From an uncultured Planctomycetia bacterium (GTDB lineage: Bacteria > Omnitrophota > Gorgyraeia > Pluralincolimonadales > Pluralincolimonadaceae): a stretch of DNA of 64,000 nucleotides. The notes below the pieces were generated by a model, which saw only the letters and a program-made list of their open reading frames with translations, ran no database searches and was not told the DNA's origin. A program made the translations under genes and the position numbers. Where the stretch lies: positions 12,708-76,707 of the forward strand of contig CAZYUB010000002.1 in NCBI GenBank assembly GCA_964650515.1, written 5' to 3'. Shown here piece by piece: positions 8,288-64,000 of the stretch. Each line of letters opens with the position of its first letter. Positions within the stretch are counted from its first letter, which is position 1.

Positions 8288-8288
8288 T

Positions 8289-11492: not shown

Positions 11493-13298
11493 ATGAGACC
11501 CGAAAGGAAAGTCAACGCAGTATGGTTCTTCCTGAAACGCTACAAGCGCATCTACGTGACGATGCTTTTAGTCACGATAGGATATTCCGTGCTCGAGAGC
11601 GTGAATATATCGATGTTCCTTCCGCTCTTCACGTCGGTCGTGGGGGAGAGCGCCGAGACGGCCGGAAAGTTCTTCCGGATAATGGAGGGCATCATATCGC
11701 TGATGCCGTTCGGGAACAGGTTCCTGAACATATGCGTGTTGATAGTGGTGCTGCTCGTGGTCAAGGAGATACTCGGATTCGTCAGGCACGTGCTGATCGG
11801 CTACGGGATAGGCAGGGTCATAACCGACGTCAAGGAAGAGATCTTCAACAAGTACGTCAATTCGGATTACCAGTTCTTCCTCGACAACAAGCAGGGCAGG
11901 CTCCTCTATAATATGCTTACGGCCACCGGACGCCTCGGCAGCTGCCTGCAGTTCATACCCGATTTCATAAACGCGATGCTGATGACGGTAAGCATAGGCG
12001 CGCTGCTCTTCTCGATGTCGTTCGGGGTGACGATGGTGCTCCTCGTAGCGGGCCTGGCTTTCAATCTCCTTACGCAGATACTGGCCAAACGCGTCTCTTA
12101 CCACATAGGGACGGAGAGGGCGACCGTCAGCACCGAAGCGAACGTCATAGCGAACGAGGTGATAGACGGGATAAAGCATATAAAGGTCTTCGGTTCGTCG
12201 GAGTTCTGGAGGCATAATTTCGAGCGATCGGTAAGGCGCTTCAAGACCCTCGTCATAGAGGATTTCGTATGGATAGGCATCCCCGAAAGGGTAATGCAGC
12301 TGCTTCCCGCGGCGATGCTTATAATGGTTGCCATATTCTTCAGGCATTTCAGCAAAGGCCCGGACGCCGATCAGGCGTTTTCCGCCAAGATAGCGCTTGT
12401 GGGCGTATATGCGTACGCGTTCTACAGGCTAATCCCTTTCCTGACGTCATTCGGAAGGCTGCGTATGCAGATAATGGGCGCGCTTCCCGAGGTCGAGCTA
12501 TTGTACGACGACCTGCATGAGGACACGAACAGGATCAAGGACGGCAATACGAAGATAGACGGGTTCAGGAAGGAACTGGCGTTCAGGGACGTGAGCTTCA
12601 ATTACAAGGGGAAGAAGGAGATACTTAACGGCGTCTCCTTCAATATCGAAAAGGGCAAGACCACCGCCATCGTGGGCGCCTCCGGAAGCGGCAAGACAAC
12701 GCTGATAAACCTCATTGTAAGGCTCTTCGTGCCTGACGAAGGCAGGATAACCCTGGACGGGACAGACCTGAGGGACATCAAGTACGCCTCGCTTATCAAG
12801 CTCATCGGGATGGTAAGCCAGGACACGTTCATATTCAACGCGACGATAAAGGAGAATATCATCTTCGGCCTTAAGGCAGTGACGCACGAACGGCTTGTCA
12901 ACGCGTGCAAGCTGGCCAACGCGCATGATTTCATAAGCAATTTCCCCGAAGGCTACGAGACGGTCGTCGGCGATAAGGGATTGAAGCTGTCGGGCGGGCA
13001 GAGGCAGAGGATAGCCATTGCGCGCGCGATAATCAGGGACCCGGAGATACTGATACTCGACGAGGCGACGAGCTCGCTCGATTACCATTCCGAGGCGATA
13101 GTGCAGGAGGCCATAAACGAGGTATCGAAGAACAGGACGGTCATAGTCGTAGCGCACAGGCTTTCCACGGTGATCGACGCGGACAAGATAATAGTCATGG
13201 ACAAGGGCAGGATAGTAGAGGAAGGGACGCATGCCGCGCTTATAAAGAAAGAAGGGGTCTACAGGGCTTTATATGAAAGACAGCAAAAAACGATATAA
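11493..13298 (+). CDS. fused TMD-NBD ABC exporter (MsbA/PglK-like, candidate lipid-linked glycan flippase)
   Basis: Six predicted N-terminal TM helices, Walker A 'GASGSGKTT', ABC signature 'LSGGQRQRIAIARA', Walker B 'ILILDEATS', H-loop 'VIVVAHRLS'. Confidence 0.85.
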   Translation: MRPERKVNAVWFFLKRYKRIYVTMLLVTIGYSVLESVNISMFLPLFTSVVGESAETAGKFFRIMEGIISLMPFGNRFLNICVLIVVLLVVKEILGFVRHVLIGYGIGRVITDVKEEIFNKYVNSDYQFFLDNKQGRLLYNMLTATGRLGSCLQFIPDFINAMLMTVSIGALLFSMSFGVTMVLLVAGLAFNLLTQILAKRVSYHIGTERATVSTEANVIANEVIDGIKHIKVFGSSEFWRHNFERSVRRFKTLVIEDFVWIGIPERVMQLLPAAMLIMVAIFFRHFSKGPDADQAFSAKIALVGVYAYAFYRLIPFLTSFGRLRMQIMGALPEVELLYDDLHEDTNRIKDGNTKIDGFRKELAFRDVSFNYKGKKEILNGVSFNIEKGKTTAIVGASGSGKTTLINLIVRLFVPDEGRITLDGTDLRDIKYASLIKLIGMVSQDTFIFNATIKENIIFGLKAVTHERLVNACKLANAHDFISNFPEGYETVVGDKGLKLSGGQRQRIAIARAIIRDPEILILDEATSSLDYHSEAIVQEAINEVSKNRTVIVVAHRLSTVIDADKIIVMDKGRIVEEGTHAALIKKEGVYRALYERQQKTI

Positions 13299-24552: not shown

Positions 24553-24558
24553 TAAGCC

Positions 24559-25401: not shown

Positions 25402-25417
25402 TCTAGGGAGGTTAGAG

Positions 25418-27391: not shown

Positions 27392-27392
27392 T

Positions 27393-43547: not shown

Positions 43548-44992
43548 AGCGCGCGATAAGGAAAGCGCTGCTTTGCTATCCGCCGGTGGGGCTGTTCCAG
43601 AGGGGCGAGGAGAGGTGCCAGGCGGATATCGAGGGCTCGGCGACACAGGCGCCGCATGCACCTAATGACCTCGGGTATATCGCCGCTTGCCTCGGAAGGC
43701 GGGGGATAGAATGCATAATAAAGGATTATCCGGCAGAGGGGGTGCAGGAGGCGGCCGTGCTGGAAGAGGTAAAGGCATACTCGCCGGACATTATGCTTAT
43801 CAGCACGACTACGCCTACGTTCCCCGAAGACGTCCGGTTCCTGGAGAAGGTAAAGTCGGCTCTGCCGGGGACATTTACCGTCGCTAAGGGAAGTTGTTTC
43901 TGCTCGCTTCCGCTGGATGAACTTCAGAAATGCGAATACAGGCCGCTCGACGCTGCCATTTACGGGGAAGCCGAATTTATAATAGAGGAACTGGTTAAAG
44001 CTTTGGGGGCGGACGGCCGCCTCGACGGAGTAGAGGGTATAATAATAAATATCGGGACGAAGGATGCCGCGAGGACCGCGCGCCCGCGATTCCGTGAGGA
44101 CCTCGATTCCCTGCCGTTCCCAGCGAGGGGCCTGATGAACAACGGGCTCTACAGGAACCCGCTTACCGGCAGGCCCATGGCCACTATACTTGTCTCCCGC
44201 GGGTGCCCTTCACAATGCATATTTTGCCTTACGCCGGTAATATCCGGGCATAAGTTCAGGAAGAGGTCCGTCGGTAATGTCTTGGATGAGATAAAGGACT
44301 GCGTTAAGAATTACGGCATCAGGGATTTCTTCTTCCGTGCCGACACATTTACAATGGATAACGAATACGTGAAACAGCTGTGCGGCAGGATACTGGATGA
44401 AGGGCTCAAGATAACATGGGTGGCTAATAGCAGGGCCGACGTGGTAAGCAAGGAGCTCCTCGCGGCGATGAAGGCGGCGGGATGCGCGCTCGTCGCGTTC
44501 GGGTTCGAATCCGGCAATGAGGATATACAGCGGAAGATCAAGAAGAACGCGTCCGCGGATGACGCGCGCCGCGCGGTCAGGTTATGCAGGGAAGCGCGGC
44601 TGAAGACGCTCGGGTTCTTCATGATAGGTTTCCCGTGGGACGATGAGAAGACGGTTGAGGACACGGCCGCGCTGGTCAGGGAACTCGATTGCGATTTCAT
44701 AGAAGTGCATATAGCGCTGCCGTTCGAGGGCACGGAGCTCAACGACATATGCCGGGACCTCGGGCTCATAAAGGAGACATCGGTCGGATACAACTATTTC
44801 TCGAACCCTTACGGCGGCGGGACGCTGCACCTGGGAAGGGAACGCCTGGCACAGCTCAGGAAAGATATCATAAAGAGACAGTACCTGAGGTTACCGTATA
44901 TATTTCGCATGCTTACGCACTGCAGCTCTTTTTATGAATTCATGAACTACATCAAGTACGGTTTCAGGCTCCTCGGAAAGGTCGCGTGTTGA
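43544..44992 (+). CDS. B12-binding domain radical SAM protein
   Basis: 'VSRGCPSQCIFC' CxxxCxxC. N-terminal B12-binding-like region 'IGSATQAPHAPNDLGYIAACL' as in paralogues. GTGA overlap start. Confidence 0.7.
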   Translation: MKRAIRKALLCYPPVGLFQRGEERCQADIEGSATQAPHAPNDLGYIAACLGRRGIECIIKDYPAEGVQEAAVLEEVKAYSPDIMLISTTTPTFPEDVRFLEKVKSALPGTFTVAKGSCFCSLPLDELQKCEYRPLDAAIYGEAEFIIEELVKALGADGRLDGVEGIIINIGTKDAARTARPRFREDLDSLPFPARGLMNNGLYRNPLTGRPMATILVSRGCPSQCIFCLTPVISGHKFRKRSVGNVLDEIKDCVKNYGIRDFFFRADTFTMDNEYVKQLCGRILDEGLKITWVANSRADVVSKELLAAMKAAGCALVAFGFESGNEDIQRKIKKNASADDARRAVRLCREARLKTLGFFMIGFPWDDEKTVEDTAALVRELDCDFIEVHIALPFEGTELNDICRDLGLIKETSVGYNYFSNPYGGGTLHLGRERLAQLRKDIIKRQYLRLPYIFRMLTHCSSFYEFMNYIKYGFRLLGKVAC

Positions 44993-49245: not shown

Positions 49246-50184
49246 ATGAATACGGCCCTTTCTATCGTCATCCCCACGTATAACGAGGAAGCTTCCATCG
49301 TCAAGCTACACGCAAGGATAAAAGAAGCCCTGCGCGGCAAGGTCAAATACGAGGTCATATTCGTCGACGACGGGAGCACCGACGGGACATGCGGCATATT
49401 GGGCAGGCTGAACCGCGAGGACCCGGACGTAAAGGCCGTGAGACTCTCGAGGAATTTCGGGCACGAGATAGCGACGTCCGCGGGGCTCAAATATGCGTCG
49501 GGAGAGGCCGTAGTCGTAATGGACTCCGACCTGCAGCATCCTCCCGAGACGATAAATGAACTGTTGGAGAAAATGAAGGAAGACTATGATATCGTCTTCG
49601 CGGTAAGGCGCAACAGGGAAGCCGGATCCGCGCTTAAAAAATTCTGCTCGAAGGCCTTCTACGGCATATTGGGCAGGCTGTCGGAGGTCAAACTGCCGGA
49701 TGACGTGACGGATTTCATGATACTCAACAGGAAAGCGGTCGACGCGTTCCTGAAGCTCAAGGAGAAGAGCCGGTTCTTCAGGGCCATGGTATCGTGGATG
49801 GGCTTCAGGACGGCATTCGTGCCGTTCGAGGAGGGCAAGAGGCGCAGCGGCAGCTCGAAATACGGCCTGCGGAAGCTCGCGGGCCTTTCGGTAGACGTAG
49901 TGACCGGATATTCGATAAAACCGCTGGCGTTCGTCGCATGGACAGGGTTCATAATATCGGCGTCAAGTTTTGCGCTGCTGATTTTCTACCTGGTCAAGAC
50001 GGTATTCTACGGCGCGTCCATGCCGGGTTACGCGTCGATGATGATAACGATATTGTTCATAGGCGGCATACAGCTGCTGTCGATCGGGATAATAGGCCAG
50101 TATATCGGCAGGATTTACAAGGAGACACAGAAGAGGCCGTTATACCTAGTCGGCAGCCTTATCGGACTGGAAGAAAAGGAATGA
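49246..50184 (+). CDS. GT2 polyprenyl-phosphate glycosyltransferase (DPM1/ArnC/GtrB-like) with C-terminal TM helices
   Basis: 'LSIVIPTYNEEASI...[11 protein letters not shown]...VRLSRNFGHEIATSAGL...VVMDSDLQHPPE', then two TM helices. Confidence 0.75.
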   Translation: MNTALSIVIPTYNEEASIVKLHARIKEALRGKVKYEVIFVDDGSTDGTCGILGRLNREDPDVKAVRLSRNFGHEIATSAGLKYASGEAVVVMDSDLQHPPETINELLEKMKEDYDIVFAVRRNREAGSALKKFCSKAFYGILGRLSEVKLPDDVTDFMILNRKAVDAFLKLKEKSRFFRAMVSWMGFRTAFVPFEEGKRRSGSSKYGLRKLAGLSVDVVTGYSIKPLAFVAWTGFIISASSFALLIFYLVKTVFYGASMPGYASMMITILFIGGIQLLSIGIIGQYIGRIYKETQKRPLYLVGSLIGLEEKE

Positions 50185-51896
50185 CACGTAAGAAGGCCGC
50201 CCTGTTGTTGGCCGTCGTGCTGCTGGCGGCATTCCACATCGCCGCAAGCATCGCGCAGATGTCTAACAAGTTCGACGATGAGCCCGCCGCAGGGCCTTTC
50301 GGCGGGATACGCCTGCATTACCTGAATGTCCTCAACTTCGATTTCTCGCATGGGGTGTCAGCGCCGGCCGGCACGTCGCATATACTGGACAATTTCATCA
50401 AGTCGGCGGTCAGCGGAACGCACGGGCTCCTTGATTTTGCGCACTGGTACGCATACGCGGGCATATATGACATGCTCGGGATACCGGTGAACGAGTTCTG
50501 GCTTTTGTTCGCGCAGACCGTGGTGATGTTCTGCGGCCTCATGTTGATGGCATACGCGGTATACAGGCTCTACGATGATGCAGTAGCGGCGCTGGTATTC
50601 CTGGCGATAACGTCCCAGGCGTATGTGCAGCACTCCATCAGTTTCTATATAATACCGGCCAATACGCTATATGAGGGACTCCTACTTCTCGCGATATACT
50701 TTTACGACTGGAAGGAGAAGGGGTTTGCGCGGAAAATCCCGCTTCTCGCGATGTTATTCATAAACTCGGCCTGCGGCAACGTGATAAAACTGCCGGTATA
50801 CCTGTATTTCGCATGGGCCGCGGCGTATAAACGGGACAATTACGGGCCGGTGCGTTCGGCCAGGGAATACTTCGTAAAGAACCCCGCGAACCTGACGCTT
50901 GCGGTCCCGGTCATTGCCGCGGCCGTCGCGCACCTCTATGTATACAAGAGGATAGGAGAGAGCAATCTCGGGCTTTTGGGCTGGGTCTCGCAGAAGATAG
51001 GCATAGGAGCTCCGCTCGTTTCGAAGTTCGCAGCGATAGGAAGTTCGCTGAAGAGCATGCTGCTGTCAGGCATGTGGCAGTGGTGGGCGTTTGCAGCACT
51101 TGCGGCATTTTACGCGATAGCCGTAATGCGGGGAAAGAAACAAACACCGCTGCTGTTATTTCCCGTCGTATATTACCTGTACCTCATAAATCTCGAGCCG
51201 TATTCGGCGATGCTTCCCTATATGATTATCGCGTCTATAGCGATAGCGCAGGCCTTCAGGATGGCATCCGATAAAACACGGAATGCGGCCGCGAGGTATG
51301 TTTCAACTGCGGCAGCCGCGGTCTTCACGGCATACATACTGTCGGTCCCGGCGTCCGCGAACATGGCTTCCCTCGTCTCGCCGAGGCAACGGTCACCCAA
51401 TTACCTGAAGAGCGTCGGTTATTACCTTAGGGAGCATATGAGCAAGGATGATAAGATCGCAAGCTTGCTCGACCAGAGGGAGAACATCCTGAACGAATAT
51501 TATTACGGAAAGAACTTCTTCAAGAGCCCGGTATTCGGGAAATATATCTATGACATGAGGAACATTTCGGAGCCGCCGTCTTCAACGAACCCGGTAGCCG
51601 AAGGCGAGGCGGACATGGAATTCCCTTTTTATGTCGTATCTGCGTCGTGTTATAAAAAGGACGCGGGATATGCCTCATTTGTAGATAGGCTCGCAAAGAA
51701 ATACTCTCTCAAGAAGGTCGCCGATATCGCCTCGGGCGGCACCGTCTATGCGTCGGTGTATTCTTCGAGGCCTCTGCAATACGAGAGGTTAGAGGCCGAG
51801 AATGCCAATGGGAAATTTGACAGGAAATACGCAAATTTAAAGAAACTGTTCTACAACAGGCATGTCGGCGTAGCCTCGACATGGGGGTTCTATTGA
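50181..51896 (+). CDS. polytopic GT-C fold membrane glycosyltransferase candidate (PMT_2/ArnT-like)
   Basis: ATGA overlap start at 50181 'MTRKKAALLLAVVLL'; the track start 49794 is an upstream extension. At least 11 TM helices and a C-terminal soluble ~150-aa tail. Confidence 0.5.
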   Translation: MTRKKAALLLAVVLLAAFHIAASIAQMSNKFDDEPAAGPFGGIRLHYLNVLNFDFSHGVSAPAGTSHILDNFIKSAVSGTHGLLDFAHWYAYAGIYDMLGIPVNEFWLLFAQTVVMFCGLMLMAYAVYRLYDDAVAALVFLAITSQAYVQHSISFYIIPANTLYEGLLLLAIYFYDWKEKGFARKIPLLAMLFINSACGNVIKLPVYLYFAWAAAYKRDNYGPVRSAREYFVKNPANLTLAVPVIAAAVAHLYVYKRIGESNLGLLGWVSQKIGIGAPLVSKFAAIGSSLKSMLLSGMWQWWAFAALAAFYAIAVMRGKKQTPLLLFPVVYYLYLINLEPYSAMLPYMIIASIAIAQAFRMASDKTRNAAARYVSTAAAAVFTAYILSVPASANMASLVSPRQRSPNYLKSVGYYLREHMSKDDKIASLLDQRENILNEYYYGKNFFKSPVFGKYIYDMRNISEPPSSTNPVAEGEADMEFPFYVVSASCYKKDAGYASFVDRLAKKYSLKKVADIASGGTVYASVYSSRPLQYERLEAENANGKFDRKYANLKKLFYNRHVGVASTWGFY

Positions 51897-54077: not shown

Positions 54078-54952
54078 TGAAAAAGAAAGCCATGGTCACA
54101 GGAGCGAACGGGATGCTGGCGGACGCATTATGCCCGCTGCTCATAAAGAACGGTTATGAGCTCATACTCACCGATATTTCGGGTGAAGAAGGGATAACGA
54201 AGTGCGATATCAGGGACATAAACGGCATGTTATCCGTTGTGAAGGAGGTGCGTCCCGAAATAATTTTCCATCTCGCCGCCGAGACCGACGTAGACAAGTG
54301 CGAGCTCCAGCCCGAGCATGCCTACGCGACGAACTGGCAGGGGACGGAGAATATCGCGCAGATATGCAAGGAACTGGATATCGCGATGGTATACATAAGC
54401 ACGGGCGCAGTATTTGACGGCGAGAAGGAAGGCGGGTATAAGGAGACAGACAAGCCCAACCCGATAAGCATATACGGCATGAGCAAGCTCAAGGGCGAGG
54501 AATCCGTCCGGTCGCTGCTTAAGAGGTACTTTATCGTGCGCGCCGGATGGATGATAGGCGGGCACAACAAGGACAAGAAATTCGTGTGGAAGATAGTCCA
54601 GCTGCTGAACACCAAGAAGGAGATATCAGTCGTCACGGACAAAACGGGAAGCCCGACGTTCACTACGGATTTCTCGCAGGGCATAGTCGACATAGTAAAG
54701 AGCGGGAAATACGGGCTCTACCACTGCGTGAATAAAGGAATATGCACGCGGTATGACATAGCCGTAAAGATCGCAGAATACCTCGGCAGGAAGGATGTCG
54801 TGATAAAGCCGGTAACATCGGACGCTTTCCCCCTTCCCGCGCCAAGGGGCAAGTCCGAGGCGATGCTGAACAGCAACCTCTCGAAGCTCGGTCTCGACAA
54901 GACAAGGCCGTGGCAGGACGCGCTTAAGGAGTACCTGAAAGCCATAAAATGA
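54074..54952 (+). CDS. RmlD-like NDP-4-keto-6-deoxyhexose reductase (second copy)
   Basis: 'AMVTGANGMLADAL', 'VYISTGAVFDGEKEGGYKETD', 'YGMSKLKGEE' YxxxK. Confidence 0.65.
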   Translation: MMKKKAMVTGANGMLADALCPLLIKNGYELILTDISGEEGITKCDIRDINGMLSVVKEVRPEIIFHLAAETDVDKCELQPEHAYATNWQGTENIAQICKELDIAMVYISTGAVFDGEKEGGYKETDKPNPISIYGMSKLKGEESVRSLLKRYFIVRAGWMIGGHNKDKKFVWKIVQLLNTKKEISVVTDKTGSPTFTTDFSQGIVDIVKSGKYGLYHCVNKGICTRYDIAVKIAEYLGRKDVVIKPVTSDAFPLPAPRGKSEAMLNSNLSKLGLDKTRPWQDALKEYLKAIK

Positions 54953-56031
54953 AAGTCCTGTTCCTGGAACCGTATCCTACGGAAGGGCCCAGCAGCAGGT
55001 ACAGGGTAGAGCAGTATATACCGTACCTGAGGCAGAACGGCATAGACTGCGAAGTCAGGCCGTTCGTCAGTTCCCCGTTTTACAGGATACTGTACAAGAA
55101 GGGGATGTATCTCAGGAAGCTCGCGTATTTCGCGGCCTGCGCGTTCAGGAGGATATCCGACCTGTTTGCAGCGTTCTCGTCCGATGCGGTATTCATACAC
55201 CTCGAGGCGTTCCCGTTCGGCCCGCCGGCCATAGAATGGCTTCTTGCCGTGACGGGCAAGAAGATAATATACGACCTCGACGACGCGATATACCTGGGCG
55301 CGGCGAGCAGTACGAACAGTTTTTTGAAGGGGCTGAAATGCCCGTGGAAGATACCGAAGATAATAGCGATGAGCAGGCGCGTAATAACCTGCAACGAATA
55401 TCTTGCGGAATACGCATCAAAGTATAATAAGGAAGTGACGGTCATACATACATCTGTCGACACGGAGAAATTTAGGCCTTCAGGGCGGTCCGGCGACAAC
55501 CTGATAACAATAGGGTGGATAGGAAGCCATAGCACCGCGAAATATCTCGAGTCCCTGAAAGGCGTTTTTGAAGAGCTCGTGAAAAGGGGTTTCAGGTTCA
55601 GGTTGAAGATCATAGGCGCATCGGGCAGGATCACGGAAGTGCCGGGAGTCGAGGTCATATATAAGGATTGGAACTTGAAGGATGAGATAGCCGAGTTCCA
55701 GTCGATAGATATCGGCGTCTATCCTCTTACGGATGACGAATGGACCGCAGGCAAGACGGGGTTCAAGACGATACAGTATATGAGCGTCGGCATACCGTGC
55801 GTCGCCTCAAACGCGAGCCCGAACAGGGTGATAATAGAGGAAGGCAGGAACGGTTTTCTCGCGAGGGACTCGGGAGAATGGGTCGAGAAACTGTCGAAGC
55901 TTATCGGGGATGCCGGCCTGAGGCAAAGGATAGGCGAAGCCGGCCGCAGGACCGTCCTGGAAAGGTATTCGCTCGAGGTCAACGCTCCTAAGATAATGGC
56001 GATAATCAAGAAAACGGGGGCAGAGAGGTAA
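54949..56031 (+). CDS. GT4 (GT-B, group 1) glycosyltransferase
   Basis: 'MKVLFLEPYP...'; C-terminal 'IQYMSVGIPCVASNASPNRVIIEEGRNGFLA' is the GT4 signature. Confidence 0.7.
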   Translation: MKVLFLEPYPTEGPSSRYRVEQYIPYLRQNGIDCEVRPFVSSPFYRILYKKGMYLRKLAYFAACAFRRISDLFAAFSSDAVFIHLEAFPFGPPAIEWLLAVTGKKIIYDLDDAIYLGAASSTNSFLKGLKCPWKIPKIIAMSRRVITCNEYLAEYASKYNKEVTVIHTSVDTEKFRPSGRSGDNLITIGWIGSHSTAKYLESLKGVFEELVKRGFRFRLKIIGASGRITEVPGVEVIYKDWNLKDEIAEFQSIDIGVYPLTDDEWTAGKTGFKTIQYMSVGIPCVASNASPNRVIIEEGRNGFLARDSGEWVEKLSKLIGDAGLRQRIGEAGRRTVLERYSLEVNAPKIMAIIKKTGAER

Positions 56032-56033
56032 AC

Positions 56034-57926
56034 ATGTGCGGGATCTGCGGGATCATAGACATCTCCGGAAAGCCTGTAAGCGCCGACGCGGTAAAGGCAA
56101 TGTGCTCGGAGATGAAGCACCGCGGCCCCGACGACGAAGGGATATACCTGAATGATGCCGGCAGCGGCCCCTCGGCCGCTCTCGGCCACAGGAGGCTGAG
56201 CATCATAGACCTGTCGTCGTGCGCGAAGCAGCCGATGTCGAACGAGGACGGTTCGGTATGGCTTGTCCTGAACGGAGAGATATATAATTACAACGAGCTG
56301 AGGCCCGGGCTCGAGAGTAAGGGCCATAAGTTCAGGTCGCATTCCGATACCGAGACGCTAGTGCACCTGTACGAGGAATACGGCGTAAAGTGCGTCGACA
56401 TGCTCAGGGGGATGTTCGCGTTCGCGATCTGGGACGATAATAAGAAGGAGCTTTTTGCGGCCCGGGACAGGGTCGGGAAGAAGCCGTTCATATATCAGCA
56501 TAAGGACGGAAGGTTCGTGTTCGCGTCCGAATTCGCGGCGATCCTGAAGAGCGGCGATATATCCCGAAAAGTAAGCGATGACGCGATACACTATTACATG
56601 AGCCTTGGTTACGTCCCGGCCCCGATGTCGGCGCTGGAAGGCGTAAGCAAACTGTCGCCTGCCTGCTATCTTACGCTTTCCAGGAACGGCCTTAAGGTGG
56701 AACGATATTGGGAACTGGATTACTCCAGGAAGCTAAAGATAAGCGAGGAAGATGCCGCGGCCGAGGTCAGAAGGCTTGCTGAAGAAGCGGTAAAGATAAG
56801 GTTGTTCAGCGACGTCCCTCTCGGCGCTTTCCTGAGCGGCGGGGTAGACTCAAGCTGTGTAGTGGCGATGATGAGCAAACTCTCCCCTGGAAAGGTCAGG
56901 ACCTTTACGATAGGCTTCGAGGAAAAGGACTACAGCGAGCTCGAATACGCAAGGAAGATATCGGGCCTTTTCGGCACCGAACACCGTGAATTCATCGTGA
57001 AGCCGAATGCGCTCGATATCATAGGCATGCTTGCGGAAAGGTACGGCGAACCGTATGCCGACTCTTCGTGCATACCGACGTACTACGTATCGAAGGAGAC
57101 GCGCGCGTTCGTGACTGTCGCCCTTAACGGCGACGGCGGCGACGAATCATTCGCTGGATACGAGCGTTACCAGGCGATGAGCGCGGCGGAAAAGATCCGC
57201 GGCCTCGGGCTGGGCGCGGCGGCTAAAGCCGCCGCAACGGTATTGCCGGACTCGACAGACCCGAAGGACCTTGCGCGCAGGGCAAGGAGGTTCCTTACCA
57301 ACGCGGGGCTGCCAGCGGCCGAAAGATACTTGAGATGGGTCGGGATAGCGGGGGACGTAAAACCTGAGGGGCTGTATTCCGGGGATTACCTTGGCCGTAT
57401 AGATAGAAGCGGCCCGTTAAACCTGCTGAAACCGTATATAGGCGACAGGTCGTGCCCGGAGTTCCTCGACAGGCTCCTGAAGGCCGACGTGAACACGTCG
57501 CTGCCGAACGACCTGCTCGTAAAAGTCGATATCGCGGGCATGGCGGCGTCGCTCGAAGGGCGTTCGCCGTTCCTCGACCATAAGCTTATGGAATTCGCGG
57601 CGTCACTTCCCTCGTCATATAAGATAAAAGGAAGCGTCAAGAAGTACATACTTAAGAAGGCCTTCTCGGGGGTGATACCCGCCGACATACTTTCGAGGAG
57701 GAAAATGGGATTCGGCGTGCCTGTAAGCGCGTGGTTCAGGGGAGAGCTGAAGGGAATACTGGCGGAGACCCTGCTTTCAAAGGCGTCGCTATCGAGGGGA
57801 TATTTCAGGCAGGAGGCGGTAAAAGGGATGGTCGAGAGCCATACCTCCGGAAGGAAGGATTATTCGTTCCAATTGTGGGCGATGTTGATGCTCGAACTGT
57901 GGCATAAGAGGTTCATCGACGGATGA
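56034..57926 (+). CDS. asnB: asparagine synthase (glutamine-hydrolysing) family amidotransferase, AsnB-like
   Basis: 'MCGICGI', 'LGHRRLSIIDLS', 'LNGEIYNYNELR', PP-loop 'SGGVDSS'; 630 aa. AGAGAGG RBS upstream. Confidence 0.8.
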   Translation: MCGICGIIDISGKPVSADAVKAMCSEMKHRGPDDEGIYLNDAGSGPSAALGHRRLSIIDLSSCAKQPMSNEDGSVWLVLNGEIYNYNELRPGLESKGHKFRSHSDTETLVHLYEEYGVKCVDMLRGMFAFAIWDDNKKELFAARDRVGKKPFIYQHKDGRFVFASEFAAILKSGDISRKVSDDAIHYYMSLGYVPAPMSALEGVSKLSPACYLTLSRNGLKVERYWELDYSRKLKISEEDAAAEVRRLAEEAVKIRLFSDVPLGAFLSGGVDSSCVVAMMSKLSPGKVRTFTIGFEEKDYSELEYARKISGLFGTEHREFIVKPNALDIIGMLAERYGEPYADSSCIPTYYVSKETRAFVTVALNGDGGDESFAGYERYQAMSAAEKIRGLGLGAAAKAAATVLPDSTDPKDLARRARRFLTNAGLPAAERYLRWVGIAGDVKPEGLYSGDYLGRIDRSGPLNLLKPYIGDRSCPEFLDRLLKADVNTSLPNDLLVKVDIAGMAASLEGRSPFLDHKLMEFAASLPSSYKIKGSVKKYILKKAFSGVIPADILSRRKMGFGVPVSAWFRGELKGILAETLLSKASLSRGYFRQEAVKGMVESHTSGRKDYSFQLWAMLMLELWHKRFIDG

Positions 57927-57938
57927 GTGAGGGTAAAG

Positions 57939-59783
57939 ATGCTTAAGAACCACGACATTATATGCATATCTTCTATCGACTGGGATTTTATCTGGCAGGG
58001 GCACCAGGAGATCATGTCCGCGTTCGCCGCGAACGGCAACCGCGTACTGTTCATCGAGAATACCGGCGTGCGCGCGCCGAAGATAAAAGATATTTCCCGG
58101 CTGCGCAAGAGGTTCAGGGATTACTTCAGGGGCGTAAAGGGCATAAGGGAGGAAACGAAGAACCTTTATATATACTCCCCGATAGTGCTTCCGTTCCCGT
58201 ACTCGCGCATAGCGAGGTTTGTCAATAAGTCCATCCTTCTCTCGGTCATCAAAAGATGGATGAGGGCGATGAATTTCGTGAACCCGGTAATATGGACATT
58301 CCTTCCGACGGGCACCGCGATGGACATCATAGAGAACATAGACAAGAAACTGCTGATCTATTATTGCATAGATAATTTCGCGGTCAGTTCCGCGTCCGCG
58401 AAAAAGATAATAGCGTACGAGAAGAAACTGATAAGCGCGGCGGACCGCGTGTTCGTGACCTCGCAGGCGTTGTATGACCACTGCGTGAGGTTCAATGATA
58501 ATGTGACGATCTTCCCGTTCGGCGTGAATATCGAGAATTTCGAGAAGGTAAGGAAGGAGCAAACACGGGTGCCCGCAGAGCTTGAGGGCCTGAAGCCGCC
58601 GGTCATCGGATATGTCGGAGGGGTGCACAAGTGGATAGATTTCGAGCTTGTCAAATATGCCGCTTCCGCGCACCCGGAGATGCAGTTCGTGTTCGTCGGG
58701 CCGGTGCAGACAGACGTGTCGCAGCTTTCCGGCTGCCCCAATATCCGTCTTTTGGGGGGACGCAAGCATTCCGAGCTTCCGAACCTCGTTAAGCATTTTA
58801 CCGCGGCTGTCATTCCTTACCTGTTAACGGAGTATACGAAGAACGTCTATCCCACAAAACTTAACGAATACCTCTCGATGGGCAAGCCGGTCGTATCATC
58901 CTATCTTCCCGAAGTGGATACGTTTAACGGCAGGTACGGCGGCATAGTATATATTGGCAAGGACAAGCAGGAGTTCTCCTCGCTGTTATCCAGGGCGATA
59001 GCGGAAGATAACGACGCGCTGAGGCAGAAGAGGATATCTGCGGCTTCGGAGAACAGCTGGAGGTCGCGCATAGAGCTGATGAGCGCGGCCATAGACGAGG
59101 CCATAGAGGAGAAGACGAGGAAGGGCGAGGCCGGCTGGAAGGACAACCTTGCCGGATTATTTGCCGCCGCGAGGCGCAGGATCGCGCGGCCGGTGATATA
59201 TACCGCGGCGGCCATTCTGCTCGTATTCTGCACGCCCGCGATATGGTTTTTCGCCGAGCCGCTTAAGATAAGCGAACAGCCGCAAAAGGCCGACGCGATA
59301 GTCGTCTTTGCCGGCGGAACGGGTGAATCGGGAAAGCAGGGGCAGGGATATGAGGAGAGGGTCGATTACGCGGTCGAGCTTTATAAGAAGGGCTACGCGG
59401 AGAACATCATCTTCTCATCGGGATATTCCTACGCGATAAAGGAAGTCGATATCATGAAAGCGTTGGCGGTCTCGATGGGAGTTCCCGCAAACGCGATAAC
59501 GCTCGAGGACAAGTCCGGATATACGTATGAATTTGTGAAGAACACGAACGATATCGTGCGCAGGAACGGCTGGAAGAGGATACTGCTGGTCAGTTCGCCA
59601 TATCATATGAGGCGCGCGTCATTGGTTTATGGTAAACTCGGAGAAGGTATAGACGTCATATATACGCCTATCAGGGACAGCAAGTTCTACAGGCACGGGT
59701 TTGGCGCGTCGCCGAGACAGATAAAGGGTATTTTACACGAGTACGCCGGTATAGTATATTACCTTATAAAGGGATATATCTAA
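57939..59783 (+). CDS. GT4-like GT-B glycosyltransferase fused to C-terminal DUF218 (YdcF/ElyC/SanA-like) domain
   Basis: GT4 C-domain 'TKLNEYLSMGKPVVSS'. Then a hydrophobic helix and 'ADAIVVFAGGTGESG...RVDYAVELYKKGYAENIIFSSG...ILLVSSPYHMRRA' (DUF218). ATG 57939 has GAGGG upstream; GTG 57927 is also possible. Confidence 0.5.
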   Translation: MLKNHDIICISSIDWDFIWQGHQEIMSAFAANGNRVLFIENTGVRAPKIKDISRLRKRFRDYFRGVKGIREETKNLYIYSPIVLPFPYSRIARFVNKSILLSVIKRWMRAMNFVNPVIWTFLPTGTAMDIIENIDKKLLIYYCIDNFAVSSASAKKIIAYEKKLISAADRVFVTSQALYDHCVRFNDNVTIFPFGVNIENFEKVRKEQTRVPAELEGLKPPVIGYVGGVHKWIDFELVKYAASAHPEMQFVFVGPVQTDVSQLSGCPNIRLLGGRKHSELPNLVKHFTAAVIPYLLTEYTKNVYPTKLNEYLSMGKPVVSSYLPEVDTFNGRYGGIVYIGKDKQEFSSLLSRAIAEDNDALRQKRISAASENSWRSRIELMSAAIDEAIEEKTRKGEAGWKDNLAGLFAAARRRIARPVIYTAAAILLVFCTPAIWFFAEPLKISEQPQKADAIVVFAGGTGESGKQGQGYEERVDYAVELYKKGYAENIIFSSGYSYAIKEVDIMKALAVSMGVPANAITLEDKSGYTYEFVKNTNDIVRRNGWKRILLVSSPYHMRRASLVYGKLGEGIDVIYTPIRDSKFYRHGFGASPRQIKGILHEYAGIVYYLIKGYI

Positions 59784-59798: not shown

Positions 59799-60290
59799 AT
59801 GAGGATGATAGACGAAAAGGGAAGGGTTTTCGGAAAGATCAACATTATTGATTTCATCTTTGTGGTCCTGCTACTGAGCGTTATCCCGGCCTTTTATTAC
59901 GGCAACAGGCTTACGGAAATGAAGAAGCCGGCGGAGAAGACGTATGAGAAGGTCATCGCAGAGATAAAGTTCCCGAAGATCATGCCCGAGCTGGCGTCGG
60001 TGGTCAGGGAGGGCGATGTGGACAAGGATCCGGGAGGGGGCGCGGCCGGCGTCCTAAAAAAGATAATTTCCAGCGAGAACAGCCGGTTCGCCGCCCTGGG
60101 CAAAAACGATCAGGTGGTGATCATGGAAGACCCGACGGCCAAGGACATACAGGCATCCTTCGAGCTGAACTGCGTAAACGATAACGGCTCGCTCGACTTC
60201 GAGGGATATCCCGTGAAGATAGGAAGCAATATCGTATTTACTACCGACCTCTACAGCATGCAGGGCATAGTGGTGAAGATAGAGAAATGA
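59799..60290 (+). CDS. small N-terminally membrane-anchored conserved hypothetical (DUF4330-like)
   Basis: 'MRMIDEKGRVFGKINIIDFIFVVLLLSV' resembles the DUF4330 N-terminus often found in polysaccharide loci. AAAGGAG RBS in the 15-nt gap upstream. Confidence 0.4.
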   Translation: MRMIDEKGRVFGKINIIDFIFVVLLLSVIPAFYYGNRLTEMKKPAEKTYEKVIAEIKFPKIMPELASVVREGDVDKDPGGGAAGVLKKIISSENSRFAALGKNDQVVIMEDPTAKDIQASFELNCVNDNGSLDFEGYPVKIGSNIVFTTDLYSMQGIVVKIEK

Positions 60291-60715
60291 AAAGGGGCAG
60301 AACGGCCGGAAGCGGGCTTGTAAAAGCGGCTCAATACACCTGGGGCGTCTATAGCCGGTTCATCGACCGCCTTGAATCAGTATTCCTGCAGAGTTTGGTG
60401 ATAAAGTTTTTAAGGAAAGCAGCGGATATCCTGTCGGCAAGCGTTGAAGGAAGCTTCCTGGCGAGTGTCTCAAGGCCGTTGAACGGGTGCGTTTATTCCG
60501 GAAGCGTGCTGATAGGGAGCATAAAGAGGCCGTTCCGCAGGGCGGAATCGCGGATAGGCGCGTATTATGAGGAAAGCGGATTCAGGCGCATCGCGTCGGA
60601 GATAGAAGCGCTGTTCGTCCGCGTCGACAAGTTATTTTCCGGCTCTGGATGGAAGACGCTGAAGGATAACAGCAAGATGATCGGCATGCTGAGAAGATGC
60701 AGCGGAAAAAAATAA
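60287..60715 (+). CDS. hypothetical protein
   Basis: 142-aa ORF translationally coupled (ATGA) to the upstream gene; no recognisable motif. Confidence 0.3.
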   Translation: MKRGRTAGSGLVKAAQYTWGVYSRFIDRLESVFLQSLVIKFLRKAADILSASVEGSFLASVSRPLNGCVYSGSVLIGSIKRPFRRAESRIGAYYEESGFRRIASEIEALFVRVDKLFSGSGWKTLKDNSKMIGMLRRCSGKK

Positions 60716-61893
60716 AAGTCCTGAGGATAATCGCCCGCCTCAATGTCGGCGGCCCTGCCATACACACCATCCTTCTGACATCGGCCCTTAAAGGAGAGGA
60801 TTATGAATCGATCCTTGTCTGCGGGATCGTAGACAGTTCCGAAAAGGATATGTCCTACCTCGCGGATGCAAAGGGGGTCAAGCCGGTCGTCATTCCGGAC
60901 CTTTGCAGGAGCATAAACCCGGTAAGGGACCTGCGCGCGTTTTTTTCCATATTCAAGGCCATCAGGGAATTCAAGCCGGATATAGTCCATACTCATACGG
61001 CGAAGGCCGGAGCGATAGGAAGGGCGGCCGCGGTGCTCGCAGGAGTCCCGGTCAGGATACATACCTTCCACGGCCATATATTCGACGGTTATTTCAGCAG
61101 GCTGCAGGCGGCGGTCTTCCTGGCGATAGAGAGGATGCTGGCATATTTCACGAAATATATAATCGTCGTCAGCGAAGCGCAAAAATCGGATATCGCGGTA
61201 AGATACCGGATCGCCGGAGGGCGCAAGATAAAGGTCGTCCCTCTCGGCCTGGAGCTGGGGAAGTACGCCGTCATCGGCGGAAGGGATAAGAATTTCAGGA
61301 GGGAGCTCGGGATCGGAGACGGCGCGGTGCTGGTCTCGATAATCGGCAGGCTCGTGCCCGTAAAGAACCACAGGATGTTCATAGATGCCGCGAAAATAGC
61401 GGTGGCGGAAGCCCCCGCCGAGGATATGAGGTTCGCCGTAATAGGGGACGGCGAGGAGAGGGCATCGCTGGAAAAATATGTATCCGACTGCGGCCTGGAC
61501 GGCAAGGTATCGTTTTGCGGATGGAAGGAGGATATGTCGGGTGTCTACGCGGATTCGGATATTGTAGCGCTCACCTCGTTGAACGAGGGGACGCCCGTAG
61601 CCCTGATAGAGGCCCTGGCCTCGGGAAGGCCGGTCGTCTCGACCGACGTGGGCGGCGTAAAGGATGTCGTTCAGGACGGCATGACAGGATATCTCGTCGC
61701 TTCCGGGGATACGCGCGCGTTCGCGAAAAAGCTGCGTGAGCTTGCGGATGACGCCGCGAAGCGTGTGTCGTTCGGGGCGGCCGGAAGGGTCTCGGTCATG
61801 GGGAAATACTCAAGCGACAGGCTGGTATCCGACATAAAACGGCTTTACACAGATTCCCTAATAGATTATAATAAGGGCAAAAAAGGAGTATAG
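60697..61893 (+). CDS. GT4 (GT-B, group 1) glycosyltransferase
   Basis: 'IKVLRIIARLNVGGPAIH...', 'SLNEGTPVALIEALASGRPVVSTDVGGVKDVV'. Confidence 0.75.
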   Translation: MQRKKIKVLRIIARLNVGGPAIHTILLTSALKGEDYESILVCGIVDSSEKDMSYLADAKGVKPVVIPDLCRSINPVRDLRAFFSIFKAIREFKPDIVHTHTAKAGAIGRAAAVLAGVPVRIHTFHGHIFDGYFSRLQAAVFLAIERMLAYFTKYIIVVSEAQKSDIAVRYRIAGGRKIKVVPLGLELGKYAVIGGRDKNFRRELGIGDGAVLVSIIGRLVPVKNHRMFIDAAKIAVAEAPAEDMRFAVIGDGEERASLEKYVSDCGLDGKVSFCGWKEDMSGVYADSDIVALTSLNEGTPVALIEALASGRPVVSTDVGGVKDVVQDGMTGYLVASGDTRAFAKKLRELADDAAKRVSFGAAGRVSVMGKYSSDRLVSDIKRLYTDSLIDYNKGKKGV

Positions 61894-61897
61894 ATAA

Positions 61898-62863
61898 GTG
61901 CGCTATCTAATAACCGGCGGCGCCGGTTTCATAGGTTCCCATCTGTCGGATAAACTTATAAAAGAAGGCCACCAGGTGACTGTTTTGGATGACCTGTCTA
62001 CGGGAAAGACAGGCAATATCAGGCATCTCGAAGGAAACCCCTCGTTTAGCCTGGTCGTCGGGACGATCCTGAATGAATACCTTGTGGACAAGCTCGCGGA
62101 GCGCTGTGACGCGATATTCCATCTCGCGGCCGCGGTAGGGGTTGAGCTTATTGTCAACCATCCACTGGAGTCGCTTACCACGAACATAAAGGGAAGCGAG
62201 ATAGTGCTGGATATGGCGTGCCGCTACCACAAGAAGGTGCTGATAACATCTACGTCGGAGATATACGGGAAGAATACACAGGGCCCGCTCAAGGAAGACC
62301 AGGACAGGATCCTCGGGTCGCCGCTAAAATCAAGGTGGAGCTACTCCACCGCGAAGGCGGTAGATGAGATGCTCGCCTATACATATTGGAAGACCAAGGA
62401 TGTCCCGGCGGTCATAGTGCGGCTGTTCAATACCGTCGGGCCTAGGCAGACCGGGACGTACGGTATGGTAGTGCCGAGATTTGTCAGGCAGGCGGTCGAG
62501 GGGAAGGATATCACCGTTTACGGCTCCGGCAAGCAGAGCAGGTGCTTCCTGCACGTGAAAGACGTGGTCGCCGCGCTGCCTAAACTTATCGAGGAACCTA
62601 AGGCGTACGGCCAGGTGTTCAATATCGGCAGCCAGGAAGAAGTGACGATCGACGCGCTCGCGCGGAAGGTCATAGAGATCACGAAAAGCAGCTCCAAAGT
62701 AGTGAATATCCCCTATGAAAAGGCGTATGAAGAGGGTTTTGAGGACATGGAGAGAAGGGTCCCCGACACCTCAAAGATACGCGGGCTGATCGGTTTCGCC
62801 CCGACGGCGGACCTTAAAGCGATAATAGAAGATGTGGTAAGGTATATAAAGGAAAACAAGTAA
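61898..62863 (+). CDS. NAD-dependent NDP-sugar epimerase/dehydratase (GalE/UDP-glucuronate epimerase-like)
   Basis: GTG start '[15 protein letters not shown]'; 'TSTSEIYG'; 'YSTAKAVDE' YxxxK. Confidence 0.75.
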   Translation: MRYLITGGAGFIGSHLSDKLIKEGHQVTVLDDLSTGKTGNIRHLEGNPSFSLVVGTILNEYLVDKLAERCDAIFHLAAAVGVELIVNHPLESLTTNIKGSEIVLDMACRYHKKVLITSTSEIYGKNTQGPLKEDQDRILGSPLKSRWSYSTAKAVDEMLAYTYWKTKDVPAVIVRLFNTVGPRQTGTYGMVVPRFVRQAVEGKDITVYGSGKQSRCFLHVKDVVAALPKLIEEPKAYGQVFNIGSQEEVTIDALARKVIEITKSSSKVVNIPYEKAYEEGFEDMERRVPDTSKIRGLIGFAPTADLKAIIEDVVRYIKENK

Positions 62864-62865
62864 CA

Positions 62866-64000
62866 GTGGCTTATGTTTACCTTTTTTTGGCCGCATTTTC
62901 AGTCGCGTTCCTGACGACCCCGGTAGTCAAGGTTTTGGCAGGGCGGCTCGGCGCCGTGGCAAAGCCCAAGGAAGACAGGTGGCATAAGAAGGTCATACCG
63001 CTGATGGGAGGCGTCGCCATCTATGCGGCGTTCATGGCCGCGTACCTGTTCTTCATGCGCGAAAGGATGAATACGGGGCTCGTGGTCGGCGCCACGTCGA
63101 TATTCATCCTCGGCGTCATCGACGATATTAGAGGGCTGAGCCCCCAATCGAAACTTATAGGGCAGATCGTCTGCGCATCCCTTGCGGTGATGTTCGGGGT
63201 ATCGATCAAGGCTATCCCGATCGCCGCCATATCCGTGCCGCTTACCATACTCTGGATGGTCGGGATAACGAATTCATTCAATCTGCTCGATAATATGGAC
63301 GGCTTGTCGGCAGGCGTGGCGGCCATAGCATCCCTCACGCTCTTCGCGTGTTCGCTCGCGCTGCATAATTATGAGATAGCGATGGTATCCCTTGTAATGG
63401 CGGGCGCGGCGCTCGGTTTCCTGCCGCATAATTTCTACCCGGCGAGGATATTCATGGGCGACTGCGGCGCTATGTTCCTCGGGTTCACGCTGTCGTCGCT
63501 CGCAATAATGGGCACGTGGAAGGAGGCCTCGCACCTTTTCCTGGTGTTGCTTATCCCCGTTTTGGCGCTGGCCGTCCCTATATTCGATACACTCTTCGTT
63601 GCTATAACGCGCACGATAGACGGGAGGTCGGTAGCGAAGGGCGGAAAGGACCATACGTCGCACAGGATGGTCTTCCTCGGATGGCAGGAGAGAAAGGCGG
63701 TCATGGTGCTTTACGCCATATCTATACTGTTCGGGGCCGCGGCATACATGTCGCTGCACGTGAAGATATACGTGAGCGCTGTCATTATGTCGCTTCTCGT
63801 GCTGGTCGTCTCGGCTTTCGCGATCTTCCTGAACCATTCCACCATGTCGAGGCGCTCAGCGAGGCAGCCCGGCGATAAAGAGGTCTCGTTCTACAAGAAC
63901 GAATCAGAGCTGATAGAGGCCCTTGTAAAATACAAGAGGGTCATATTCGAGGTCATATGCGATTTTGTCCTGATATGCCTCGCGTACATGTCGAGCTATA
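62866..64000 (+). CDS. WecA/MraY-family polyprenyl-phosphate N-acetylhexosamine-1-phosphate transferase (3'-partial, runs off window)
   Basis: Not in the ORF track because no stop falls in the window. Translating from GTG 62866 gives 'GVIDDIRGLSPQSKLIGQ', 'ITNSFNLLDNMDGLSAGV', 'FMGDCGAMFLGF', which are canonical WecA/MraY motifs. Confidence 0.7.
   Translation, partial: MAYVYLFLAAFSVAFLTTPVVKVLAGRLGAVAKPKEDRWHKKVIPLMGGVAIYAAFMAAYLFFMRERMNTGLVVGATSIFILGVIDDIRGLSPQSKLIGQIVCASLAVMFGVSIKAIPIAAISVPLTILWMVGITNSFNLLDNMDGLSAGVAAIASLTLFACSLALHNYEIAMVSLVMAGAALGFLPHNFYPARIFMGDCGAMFLGFTLSSLAIMGTWKEASHLFLVLLIPVLALAVPIFDTLFVAITRTIDGRSVAKGGKDHTSHRMVFLGWQERKAVMVLYAISILFGAAAYMSLHVKIYVSAVIMSLLVLVVSAFAIFLNHSTMSRRSARQPGDKEVSFYKNESELIEALVKYKRVIFEVICDFVLICLAYMSSY

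Follow-up and report, generated by a model that had tools for sequence, protein, structure and literature searches.

A fusion of a glycosyltransferase and a DUF218 domain

The DNA considered here, a stretch of 64,000 nucleotides from contig CAZYUB010000002.1 of an uncultured bacterium of the Omnitrophota (hereafter the window), carries on its forward strand a gene for a 614-residue protein in which a glycosyltransferase (GT) domain of the GT-B fold is joined, through a single predicted transmembrane (TM) helix, to a DUF218 domain (Table 1). Its open reading frame (ORF) runs without interruption from a GTG at 57927 or an ATG at 57939 to 59783. Homologs of the protein are likewise 614 residues long, match it with 100% query coverage and start with the MLKN... 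that corresponds to the ATG; hence the gene coordinates of an earlier note, made from the sequence alone, can be retained, and the GTG is probably not used as a start. A Shine-Dalgarno-like GAGGG lies just 5' of the ATG, and the stop codon of the preceding gene occupies 57924-57926. The motifs quoted in that note for the DUF218 domain, namely AIVVFAGGTGESG, IIFSSGYS and LLVSSPYHMRRA, are all present in the translation.

A search covering a collection of 5.8 billion proteins returned 3418 matches to the fusion protein. The best 120 of these are 594-647 residues long, share 53-92% identity with it and all contain PF02698 along with PF13692 and/or PF00534. When one genome for each GTDB species was scanned, relatives were found to be encoded in 209 genomes, and 80 of the corresponding loci were retrieved for comparison. 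In each of the 80 the match is collinear over both domains and nearly complete with respect to the 614 residues (48-93% identity), and in 76 it begins within residues 1-10; of two short matches, one begins at position 3 of its contig (L011) and the other stops at the contig end (L005). Going by their labels, about 49 of these loci belong to Candidatus Omnitrophota, about 15 to Acidobacteriota or Vicinamibacterales and two to Nitrospinota, with two of them (L001 and L002) coding for proteins 92-93% identical to the one in the window. Two copies of the GT-DUF218 gene, near each other or at distinct loci, were seen in L031 and L069, and in L014 and L028, which come from a single genome (PEUD01).

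Conservation was quantified in an alignment of 62 homologs of the fusion protein. The invariant positions include D14, Q20, H22, Q23, E40, N41, R45, K307, E310 and E325 in the GT half, W374, W400, W436 and L442 at the junction, and G459, G460, G462, E463, G465, E473, R474, G495, P554, Y555, R559, E601 and Y602 in the DUF218 half. Judged by the invariant residues that each contains, both halves are under purifying selection. There is practically no chance that the fusion is an artefact of assembly or of a frameshift that joined two neighbouring genes. Stand-alone genes for a TM helix and a DUF218 domain do exist beside GT genes elsewhere (see below), but nothing was found in favour of such an origin here: the frame in the window is continuous, the same collinear protein of 594-647 residues recurs in hundreds of independent assemblies from several phyla and sequencing projects, and the residues of the junction are themselves conserved. 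We accordingly rejected a merged-gene or frameshift origin based on the homolog lengths, the collinear loci and the invariant junction. The recurrence in other genomes, which the earlier note had left to be surveyed, extends across phyla and over the 209 species-level genomes, and the fusion is confirmed as genuine and widely conserved.

Table 1. Coordinates of the fusion gene, its domains and other features in the window (positions of the 64,000-nucleotide stretch; aa, residues)
Feature	Coordinates	Strand	Basis
Whole gene, 614-aa GT-B / TM / DUF218 fusion protein	57939..59783	+	ORF, homolog starts, Shine-Dalgarno-like motif
GT-B glycosyltransferase domain, TuaH-like/GT4-like, predicted cytoplasmic, aa 1-373	57939..59057	+	Pfam, NCBIfam, Foldseek, invariant residues
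Linker helix, aa 374-417, running into the membrane helix, basic end RRRIAR	59058..59189	+	AlphaFold2, invariant W374/W400
Single TM helix, aa ~418-441, F-x-T-P-x-x-W...P-L motif	59190..59261	+	Hydropathy, charge bias
DUF218 domain, aa 452-604, predicted extracytoplasmic, pocket R474, T529, H556, R559, E601	59292..59750	+	
GT4 glycosyltransferase	54949..56031	+	Pfam; homolog N-terminal in 995-aa GT-DUF218 proteins (by eye)
Asparagine-synthase-type amidotransferase abutting the fusion gene	56034..57926	+	Pfam Asn_synthase, GATase_7
DUF4330 small membrane protein	59799..60290	+	Pfam, E=2e-18
GT4 glycosyltransferase, stp2-like	60697..61893	+	Pfam, NCBIfam
SDR (short-chain dehydrogenase/reductase) nucleotide-sugar epimerase/dehydratase	61898..62863	+	Pfam
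WecA/MraY-type polyprenyl-phosphate N-acetylhexosamine-1-phosphate transferase (PNPT), initiating	62866..64000, runs past window end	+	Pfam Glycos_transf_4, E=5e-37
MsbA/PglK-type ABC exporter, ABC_membrane + ABC_tran half-transporter	11493..13298	+	Pfam
Three B12-binding radical SAM enzymes	4874-6520, 19556-21076, 43544-44992	+	
483-aa NTP_transferase (sugar-nucleotidyltransferase) + GT2 fusion protein	42096-43547	+	
Six Pfam-negative ORFs	837-2669, 8220-9572 (-), 9641-11491, 16963-18633, 39230-40765, 49794-51896		

The glycosyltransferase half

Two Pfam models score above their cut-offs in the N-terminal half, Glyco_trans_1_4 at residues 221-353 (36.3 bits against 27) and Glycos_transf_1 at residues 216-367 (27.2 bits against 26.4); the model for the N-terminal domain, Glyco_transf_4, stays below threshold in this protein (17.3 bits against 28.5). 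The best named NCBIfam model for this part is TuaH, which matches residues 96-381 with 108.2 bits (E=4e-31) and does not reach the equivalog cut-off of 550 bits (NF047676), making the fused GT a distant relative only. The canonical EX7E motif is not present, and D/E298-x11-E310 is found instead. An AlphaFold2 model built from the homolog alignment (mean predicted local distance difference test score, 87; predicted TM-score of the full model, 0.62) shows the two-Rossmann GT-B fold for this domain, and Foldseek comparisons of the model with the Protein Data Bank (PDB) recovered MshA, sucrose-phosphate synthase, BshA, PglA, WaaG and PimA, as well as GumK, with E-values of 3e-15 to 1e-10 and target TM-scores of 0.6-0.68 for the GT4-type matches. 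A sequence search of the PDB with the full protein gave a single match, to an L-amino-acid oxidase (E=0.016), which we judged spurious.

The assignment to the GT-B class thus holds both by sequence and by fold. Of the GT4 designation proposed earlier, the part that stands is a GT-B fold whose nearest solved structures are GT4 enzymes, whereas the canonical sequence features of GT4 are wanting; given the sub-threshold Glyco_transf_4 score, the replaced EX7E motif and a TuaH score far below its cut-off, the label is best regarded as approximate.

The DUF218 half and its pocket

The C-terminal region had been described as a complete DUF218 domain, and the profile search agrees: PF02698 matches residues 452-604 over its entire length (positions 1-133 of 133) with 90.6 bits against a cut-off of 27.6 (E=1.1e-25). 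In the model this domain adopts the three-layer α/β fold of the YdcF type, and YdcF (PDB 3ca8) is its closest solved structure. The NCBIfam model for ElyC (NF007794) falls below its equivalog cut-off (22.1 bits against 205); as judged from sequence, the fusion protein is not an ortholog of ElyC, SanA, YdcF or TuaH.

Studies on Escherichia coli SanA have shown that its function requires T125, H149 and E182 (PMC12176290), and that pocket residues including R69, R152 and H149 are also needed (PMC13251401). When the DUF218 domain was aligned using MAFFT with the SanA, ElyC and YdcF sequences of the MG1655 record, R69, T125, H149 and R152 of SanA corresponded to R474, T529, H556 and R559. Among the 62 homologs R474 and R559 are conserved in every sequence and T529 in 59. 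The invariant E601 aligns with a glutamate of ElyC. In YdcF, the positions of the threonine and the histidine are taken by cysteine and methionine. Since the R/T/H/R set is matched and YdcF is without the threonine and histidine, the pocket residues place this DUF218 half in the SanA/ElyC type and not in the YdcF type.

The membrane helix and the predicted topology

The hydrophobic segment noted earlier between the two halves corresponds to the sole strong hydropathy peak of the protein, at residues ~418-441 (Kyte-Doolittle value 2.08). In the AlphaFold2 model a continuous helix spans residues 374-431, breaks at the conserved T432-P433, resumes as a short helix at 434-442 and then gives way to the α/β domain. 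Charged residues are distributed unevenly about this segment: in the 62 homologs the 15 residues before the helix have a median of 5 lysines and arginines and no acidic residue, the 15 after it a median of 2 basic and 2 acidic residues, and basic residues are more numerous before than after the helix in 54 of the sequences, as expected of the positive-inside rule. GT-B enzymes require the nucleotide sugars of the cytoplasm. Taken with this charge bias and with the homology to SanA, that requirement leads us to predict that the N-terminus lies inside and the C-terminus outside, making the GT cytoplasmic and the DUF218 domain extracytoplasmic. As the two halves would be on opposite faces of the membrane, their sites are not expected to face each other; thus, the question posed by the earlier note, whether the DUF218 site looks onto the GT active site, should be answered in the negative. 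The predicted arrangement agrees with that of anchored members of the family: E. coli SanA, ElyC and YgjQ are membrane-anchored with DUF218 in the periplasm (PMC12176290, PMC3879167), and a variant in which the SanA anchor was replaced by the DsbA signal sequence (ssDsbA-SanA) still complements, which locates the SanA DUF218 domain in the periplasm (PMC12176290).

We also considered that the whole protein might be cytoplasmic, its hydrophobic segment forming a re-entrant or interfacial helix and its DUF218 domain being a YdcF-like enzyme that uses S-adenosylmethionine (AdoMet) to modify the sugar or the acceptor. The conserved Thr-Pro break within the segment would suit such a helix, as it resembles the Ser-Pro break in the re-entrant helix of PglC-type transferases, and YdcF, besides being the closest solved structure, is reported as AdoMet-binding, a property implied for the fusion by its JGI label, 'SAM-binding protein YcdF'. 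However, an aromatic belt with the invariant W436 comes after the roughly 20 hydrophobic residues of the segment, the positive-inside bias holds across it in 54 of the 62 sequences, the pocket is like that of the periplasmic SanA and ElyC and differs from YdcF at the threonine and histidine positions, and the stand-alone relatives described below share the layout of SanA, in which a short basic N-terminal tail leads into a TM helix and then the domain. We therefore view an entirely cytoplasmic protein as very improbable, and the SanA/ElyC-type pocket along with the extracytoplasmic prediction makes the JGI label unlikely to apply.

The DUF218 module in other architectures

A HMMER search with residues 440-614 alone against 1.84 billion cluster representatives yielded 6608 matches at E<=0.001, 716 at <=1e-10 and 46 at <=1e-30, and architectures were read by Pfam scans of the length classes among them. 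A TuaH-like GT followed by DUF218 was found at identities down to 32%. Two proteins of 995 residues (P0138 and P0153) combine two GT modules with the TM helix and DUF218; by visual comparison of the sequences, their N-terminus resembles the GT4 encoded two genes upstream of the fusion in the window (Table 1), and these triple fusions would thereby tie that GT4 functionally to the fusion protein. Other partners include a canonical GT4 whose EX7E region is intact (P0186) and a GT2 of the GT-A fold with three hydrophobic peaks (P0245). Partial or short records show DUF218 with a fragment of a DUF2079 membrane protein (P0134, 359 residues), a CoA_binding_3 fragment (P0124, 404 residues) or the Glyco_transf_4 N-domain (P0136, 428 residues); matches of 330-460 residues are mostly N-truncated pieces of GT fusions. 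Finally, there are stand-alone forms of ~200-215 residues, in which a short basic tail and a TM helix precede DUF218.

The helix preceding DUF218 carries the F-x-T-P-x-x-W...P-L motif in P0138, P0186 and P0258. A partial version is seen in P0245, as FYTP without the tryptophan, and in the stand-alone P0145 (210 residues, on a 726-bp contig that shows no gene context), as FHTS with serine in place of the proline; in the stand-alone P0161 no recognizable copy was found. The sharing of this motif across architectures suggests that in most forms the mobile unit is the TM helix together with DUF218.

Genomic context could be read for four relatives, a GT2 fusion and three stand-alone genes, and in every case it is a glycan cluster. 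The P0161 gene has a 4-bp overlap with the end of a gene for a 349-residue GT and is followed by genes for a GT4, an SDR 70% identical to that of the window, a PNPT with CoA_binding_3 and a GT9. The P0164 gene overlaps a GT2 gene, and that of P0175 has one base in common with the methyltransferase gene that it abuts, with a GT gene and DUF4330 genes close by. We asked if the stand-alone genes and their neighbours might be split ortholog pairs of the fusion, and rejected this: the GTs beside stand-alone DUF218 genes in L084, L087 and L088 are orthologs neither of the fused GT nor of the upstream GT4 of the window. Such non-orthologous neighbours point to a constant TM-DUF218 module with varied partners as opposed to the fission of one ancestral fusion. 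The earlier note had proposed the fusion as a 'Rosetta stone' link between DUF218 and lipid-linked glycan assembly, and this proposal is strengthened by the fusions to other GTs, by the stand-alone genes in glycan clusters and by the placement upstream of a WecA-like transferase, which recurs in 28 of 47 loci.

The genomic neighbourhood

The whole of the 64-kb window is a surface-polysaccharide cluster, forming a single co-directional island for glycan biosynthesis. Among its genes are several for GT2, GT4-type GT-B and PMT_2 (GT-C-like) proteins, SDR epimerases or dehydratases, a DegT aminotransferase, a polysaccharide deacetylase, methyltransferases, a cytidylyltransferase, three B12-binding radical SAM enzymes, two asparagine-synthase-like amidotransferases and an MsbA/PglK-type ATP-binding cassette (ABC) exporter. 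The components expected of a glycan assembly locus are thus at hand, with the PNPT, further GTs, nucleotide-sugar enzymes and an exporter in the window itself and a Wzy_C protein (O-antigen ligase or polymerase-like) in the syntenic loci.

To compare neighbourhoods, the ORFs of the 80 loci were clustered and annotated, and conserved neighbours were counted in the 47 loci whose sequence extends at least 7 kb beyond the fusion. The conserved downstream order is the fusion, DUF4330, a small variable ORF, the stp2-like GT4, the SDR, a PNPT with CoA_binding_3, Wzy_C and GT9, the counts on the same strand being 30/47 for GT4, 29/47 for SDR, 28/47 for PNPT, 19/47 for Wzy_C and 14/47 for GT9; a WecA-like PNPT was found upstream of the fusion in none of the 47. 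The gaps separating the fusion from its flanking genes have medians of 5 and 15 bp. The SDR is conserved at a median of 69% identity across loci, and at 70% in the stand-alone-DUF218 locus L084. As the PNPT gene of the window is cut by the window end, we consulted a full-length homolog (L002:14926-16716), which bears a C-terminal CoA_binding_3 domain, a domain usually seen in WbaP- or PglF-type proteins.

The amidotransferase abutting the fusion gene scores 618 bits against the XrtA/PEP-CTERM model TIGR03108, whose cut-off is 817. An AsnB-like amidotransferase (L090:4117-5994, L091:93-1970) likewise precedes the unrelated GT2-DUF218 fusion, and the pairing may reflect an amidated uronic-acid sugar in these glycans. 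The DUF4330 gene immediately follows the fusion in 18 of 71 loci, DUF4330 genes also occur near the stand-alone DUF218 gene of L088, and their product may be a partner of the DUF218 module. A scan of PHROGs gave no match for the two small ORFs downstream of the fusion. Members of the B12-binding radical SAM family recur around the fusion in 29 related loci and also accompany stand-alone DUF218 genes in L084 and L087; these enzymes may carry out C-methylation or some other radical tailoring of sugars.

Farther from the fusion, six large ORFs of 450-700 residues gave no Pfam match at E<=1e-4, and any of them could code for a flippase, a polymerase or a GT-C-type protein. The NTP_transferase-GT2 protein is another informative fusion within the island. 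At positions 20000-30000 the G+C content is 0.45-0.48, as against ~0.53-0.56 in the rest of the island, which suggests a mosaic or horizontally acquired part of the glycan cluster.

A proposed role in a lipid-linked glycan pathway

In our view the fusion is probably a single-pass inner-membrane protein with its halves on opposite faces, both of which serve one and the same pathway of a polyprenyl-diphosphate-linked glycan. The carrier, the substrate and the action of the DUF218 domain in the following scheme are inferred. The neighbouring WecA-like transferase would start an oligosaccharide on undecaprenyl phosphate, and the cytoplasmic TuaH-like GT-B domain would take a nucleotide sugar and extend the oligosaccharide linked to undecaprenyl diphosphate. 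The intermediate would then be flipped, for which the ABC exporter is a tentative candidate, as would be one of the unannotated polytopic proteins. At the outer face, the DUF218 domain may bind the lipid-diphosphate head group in a pocket that faces the membrane and is formed by glycine-rich loops together with R474, T529, H556, R559 and E601, of which the two arginines are invariant; the glycine-rich loop after strand 1 would sit where related nucleotide-binding folds have their phosphate-binding loop. By turning over or withholding the intermediate, the domain could set the flux toward ligation or polymerization and protect the carrier pool.

This flux-setting role is the one that genetics suggests for ElyC, with respect to enterobacterial common antigen (ECA), and for SanA, with respect to lipid II. 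ElyC governs the flux through the undecaprenyl-linked ECA pathway relative to peptidoglycan (PMC3879167, PMC8609368), and the SanA pocket faces the membrane and is said to bind or enzymatically alter a molecule of the inner membrane, possibly lipid II (PMC12176290, PMC13251401). More generally, the DUF218 papers of 2025-2026 report that the conserved pocket is needed and that loss of the protein shifts flux between undecaprenyl-linked pathways. Our best reading of the DUF218 half, by analogy, is that of a SanA/ElyC analogue dedicated to one pathway.

Several observations weigh against this scheme. The residue at position 556 is histidine in 47 of the 62 homologs and asparagine in the other 15, and such frequent replacement argues against a strictly His-dependent catalytic triad. 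(Most of the homologs with Asn-556 form one subclade, in which a loop GETGSPGKST replaces GESGKAGQGY.) Whether E601 corresponds to SanA E182 is uncertain, the two being 4 columns apart in an unreliable region of the MAFFT alignment, and a local alignment did not extend to the helix with E182 and so did not confirm the equivalence. From the sequence, the conserved Thr-Pro break would also permit a re-entrant helix that does not span the membrane. The GTs beside the stand-alone DUF218 genes are, as noted, not orthologous to the fused GT. The E. coli sanA and elyC genes do not lie within the clusters of the pathways that they affect, so that such linkage is not universal in the DUF218 family. Finally, a biochemical activity is known for no DUF218 protein (PMC13251401), and its action on a flipped intermediate is hence an analogy.

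The physical connection between the halves raises the possibility of transmembrane feedback, wherein the outer DUF218 domain senses the flipped intermediate and throttles the GT through the helix of residues 374-431, sparing carrier lipid. An unbroken helix does lead from the C-terminus of the GT into the membrane, with W374 and W400 invariant, flux into the own pathway rises when ElyC or SanA is lost, as would fit a negative regulator, and the tolerance of asparagine at position 556 is easier to square with binding than with catalysis. Yet the same clade has many stand-alone TM-DUF218 proteins whose cytoplasmic part is only a short tail, which indicates that the domain works without an attached GT; the partners are of unrelated folds (GT-A and GT-B), making one conserved allosteric mechanism improbable; and SanA is functional when detached from its anchor. 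This kind of feedback appears unlikely to us. We give a similarly low likelihood to the fusion being mainly a convenience of anchoring or co-expression, with the DUF218 domain serving another pathway, such as lipid II or the general undecaprenyl phosphate pool. That SanA and ElyC are encoded apart from the pathways they influence, that the partner GTs vary and that one carrier pool is common to all polyprenyl-linked pathways would all be in keeping with it; however, it does not sit well with repeated fusion to glycan-assembly enzymes of differing folds or with the fixed place upstream of the initiating PNPT, and the two copies in some loci or genomes are more suggestive of paralogs each dedicated to a pathway than of a single housekeeping function.

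A service of both halves to one glycan pathway remains our preferred interpretation, and it allows a broader, more tentative suggestion: the TM helix and DUF218 may constitute a portable outer-face module, attached by fusion or by translational coupling to the GT, cytoplasmic or membrane-bound, that defines a pathway, and recognizing its own flipped lipid-diphosphate-glycan. Each copy might turn over its own intermediate or signal back, such that cytoplasmic synthesis is matched to periplasmic consumption and the common carrier pool is spared. Were this true, SanA and ElyC would be unfused, Enterobacterales-specific cases of a general rule, and the fusion partners would name the physiological substrate of each DUF218 domain.

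Full-text searching of the literature on DUF218 or YdcF with glycosyltransferases, fusions and Omnitrophota turned up no description of the GT-DUF218 fusion; the only comparative mention found was a remark that lists an ElyC-like DUF218 protein among the gene neighbours of VanZ-1 in exopolysaccharide loci (PMC12419801). Hundreds of copies of the fusion are already held in databases. NCBI names it only as an 'ElyC/SanA/YdcF family protein', hiding the GT half, and JGI labels it with both COG names; our analysis corrects these labels by restoring the GT half and by making 'SAM-binding YcdF' unlikely for a domain that is predicted to be extracytoplasmic and is without the pocket residues of YdcF. 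A conserved covalent link to a GT, repeated with several GT types and beside an initiating transferase, provides independent comparative evidence on DUF218 and suggests that it acts on a specific lipid-linked glycan. The fusions, which unite an enzyme, an anchor and DUF218 with a defined pathway and a candidate substrate, are convenient systems for study. We see the fusion as a useful and testable lead on the open DUF218 question rather than as a surprise in itself.

Comparison with known systems

The acceptors of TuaH, PglA and WaaG are lipid-linked or membrane-associated. TuaH, the teichuronic acid glycosyltransferase of Bacillus subtilis, is the best-scoring named model for the fused GT, which has the GT-B fold in common with MshA, BshA, PglA, WaaG and PimA; its identity to the solved GT4 structures is 12-17%. 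It differs from TuaH and the GT4 enzymes in its own N-terminal motif, SSIDWDFIWQGHQ, and the fusion protein adds to them the C-terminal TM helix and DUF218.

On the DUF218 side, the bitopic SanA of E. coli (b2144) has a single TM helix ahead of a DUF218 domain outside the cytoplasm, the layout predicted for the fusion, and its required R69, T125, H149 and R152 are matched in the fusion. SanA is 17% identical, is without a cytoplasmic enzyme domain, affects lipid II and peptidoglycan and is encoded outside glycan clusters; unlike it, the fusion family has its own loop motif, GGxGE[ST]G...ER. ElyC (b0920) has a periplasmic DUF218 domain whose threonine, histidine, arginine and glutamate align with the residues of the fusion; it is 23% identical, possesses two N-terminal TM helices and lacks a GT domain. 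YdcF, in contrast, is cytoplasmic and devoid of a TM helix, and the AdoMet binding reported for it would not be expected of a domain situated outside the cytoplasm, as is predicted for the DUF218 half of the fusion.

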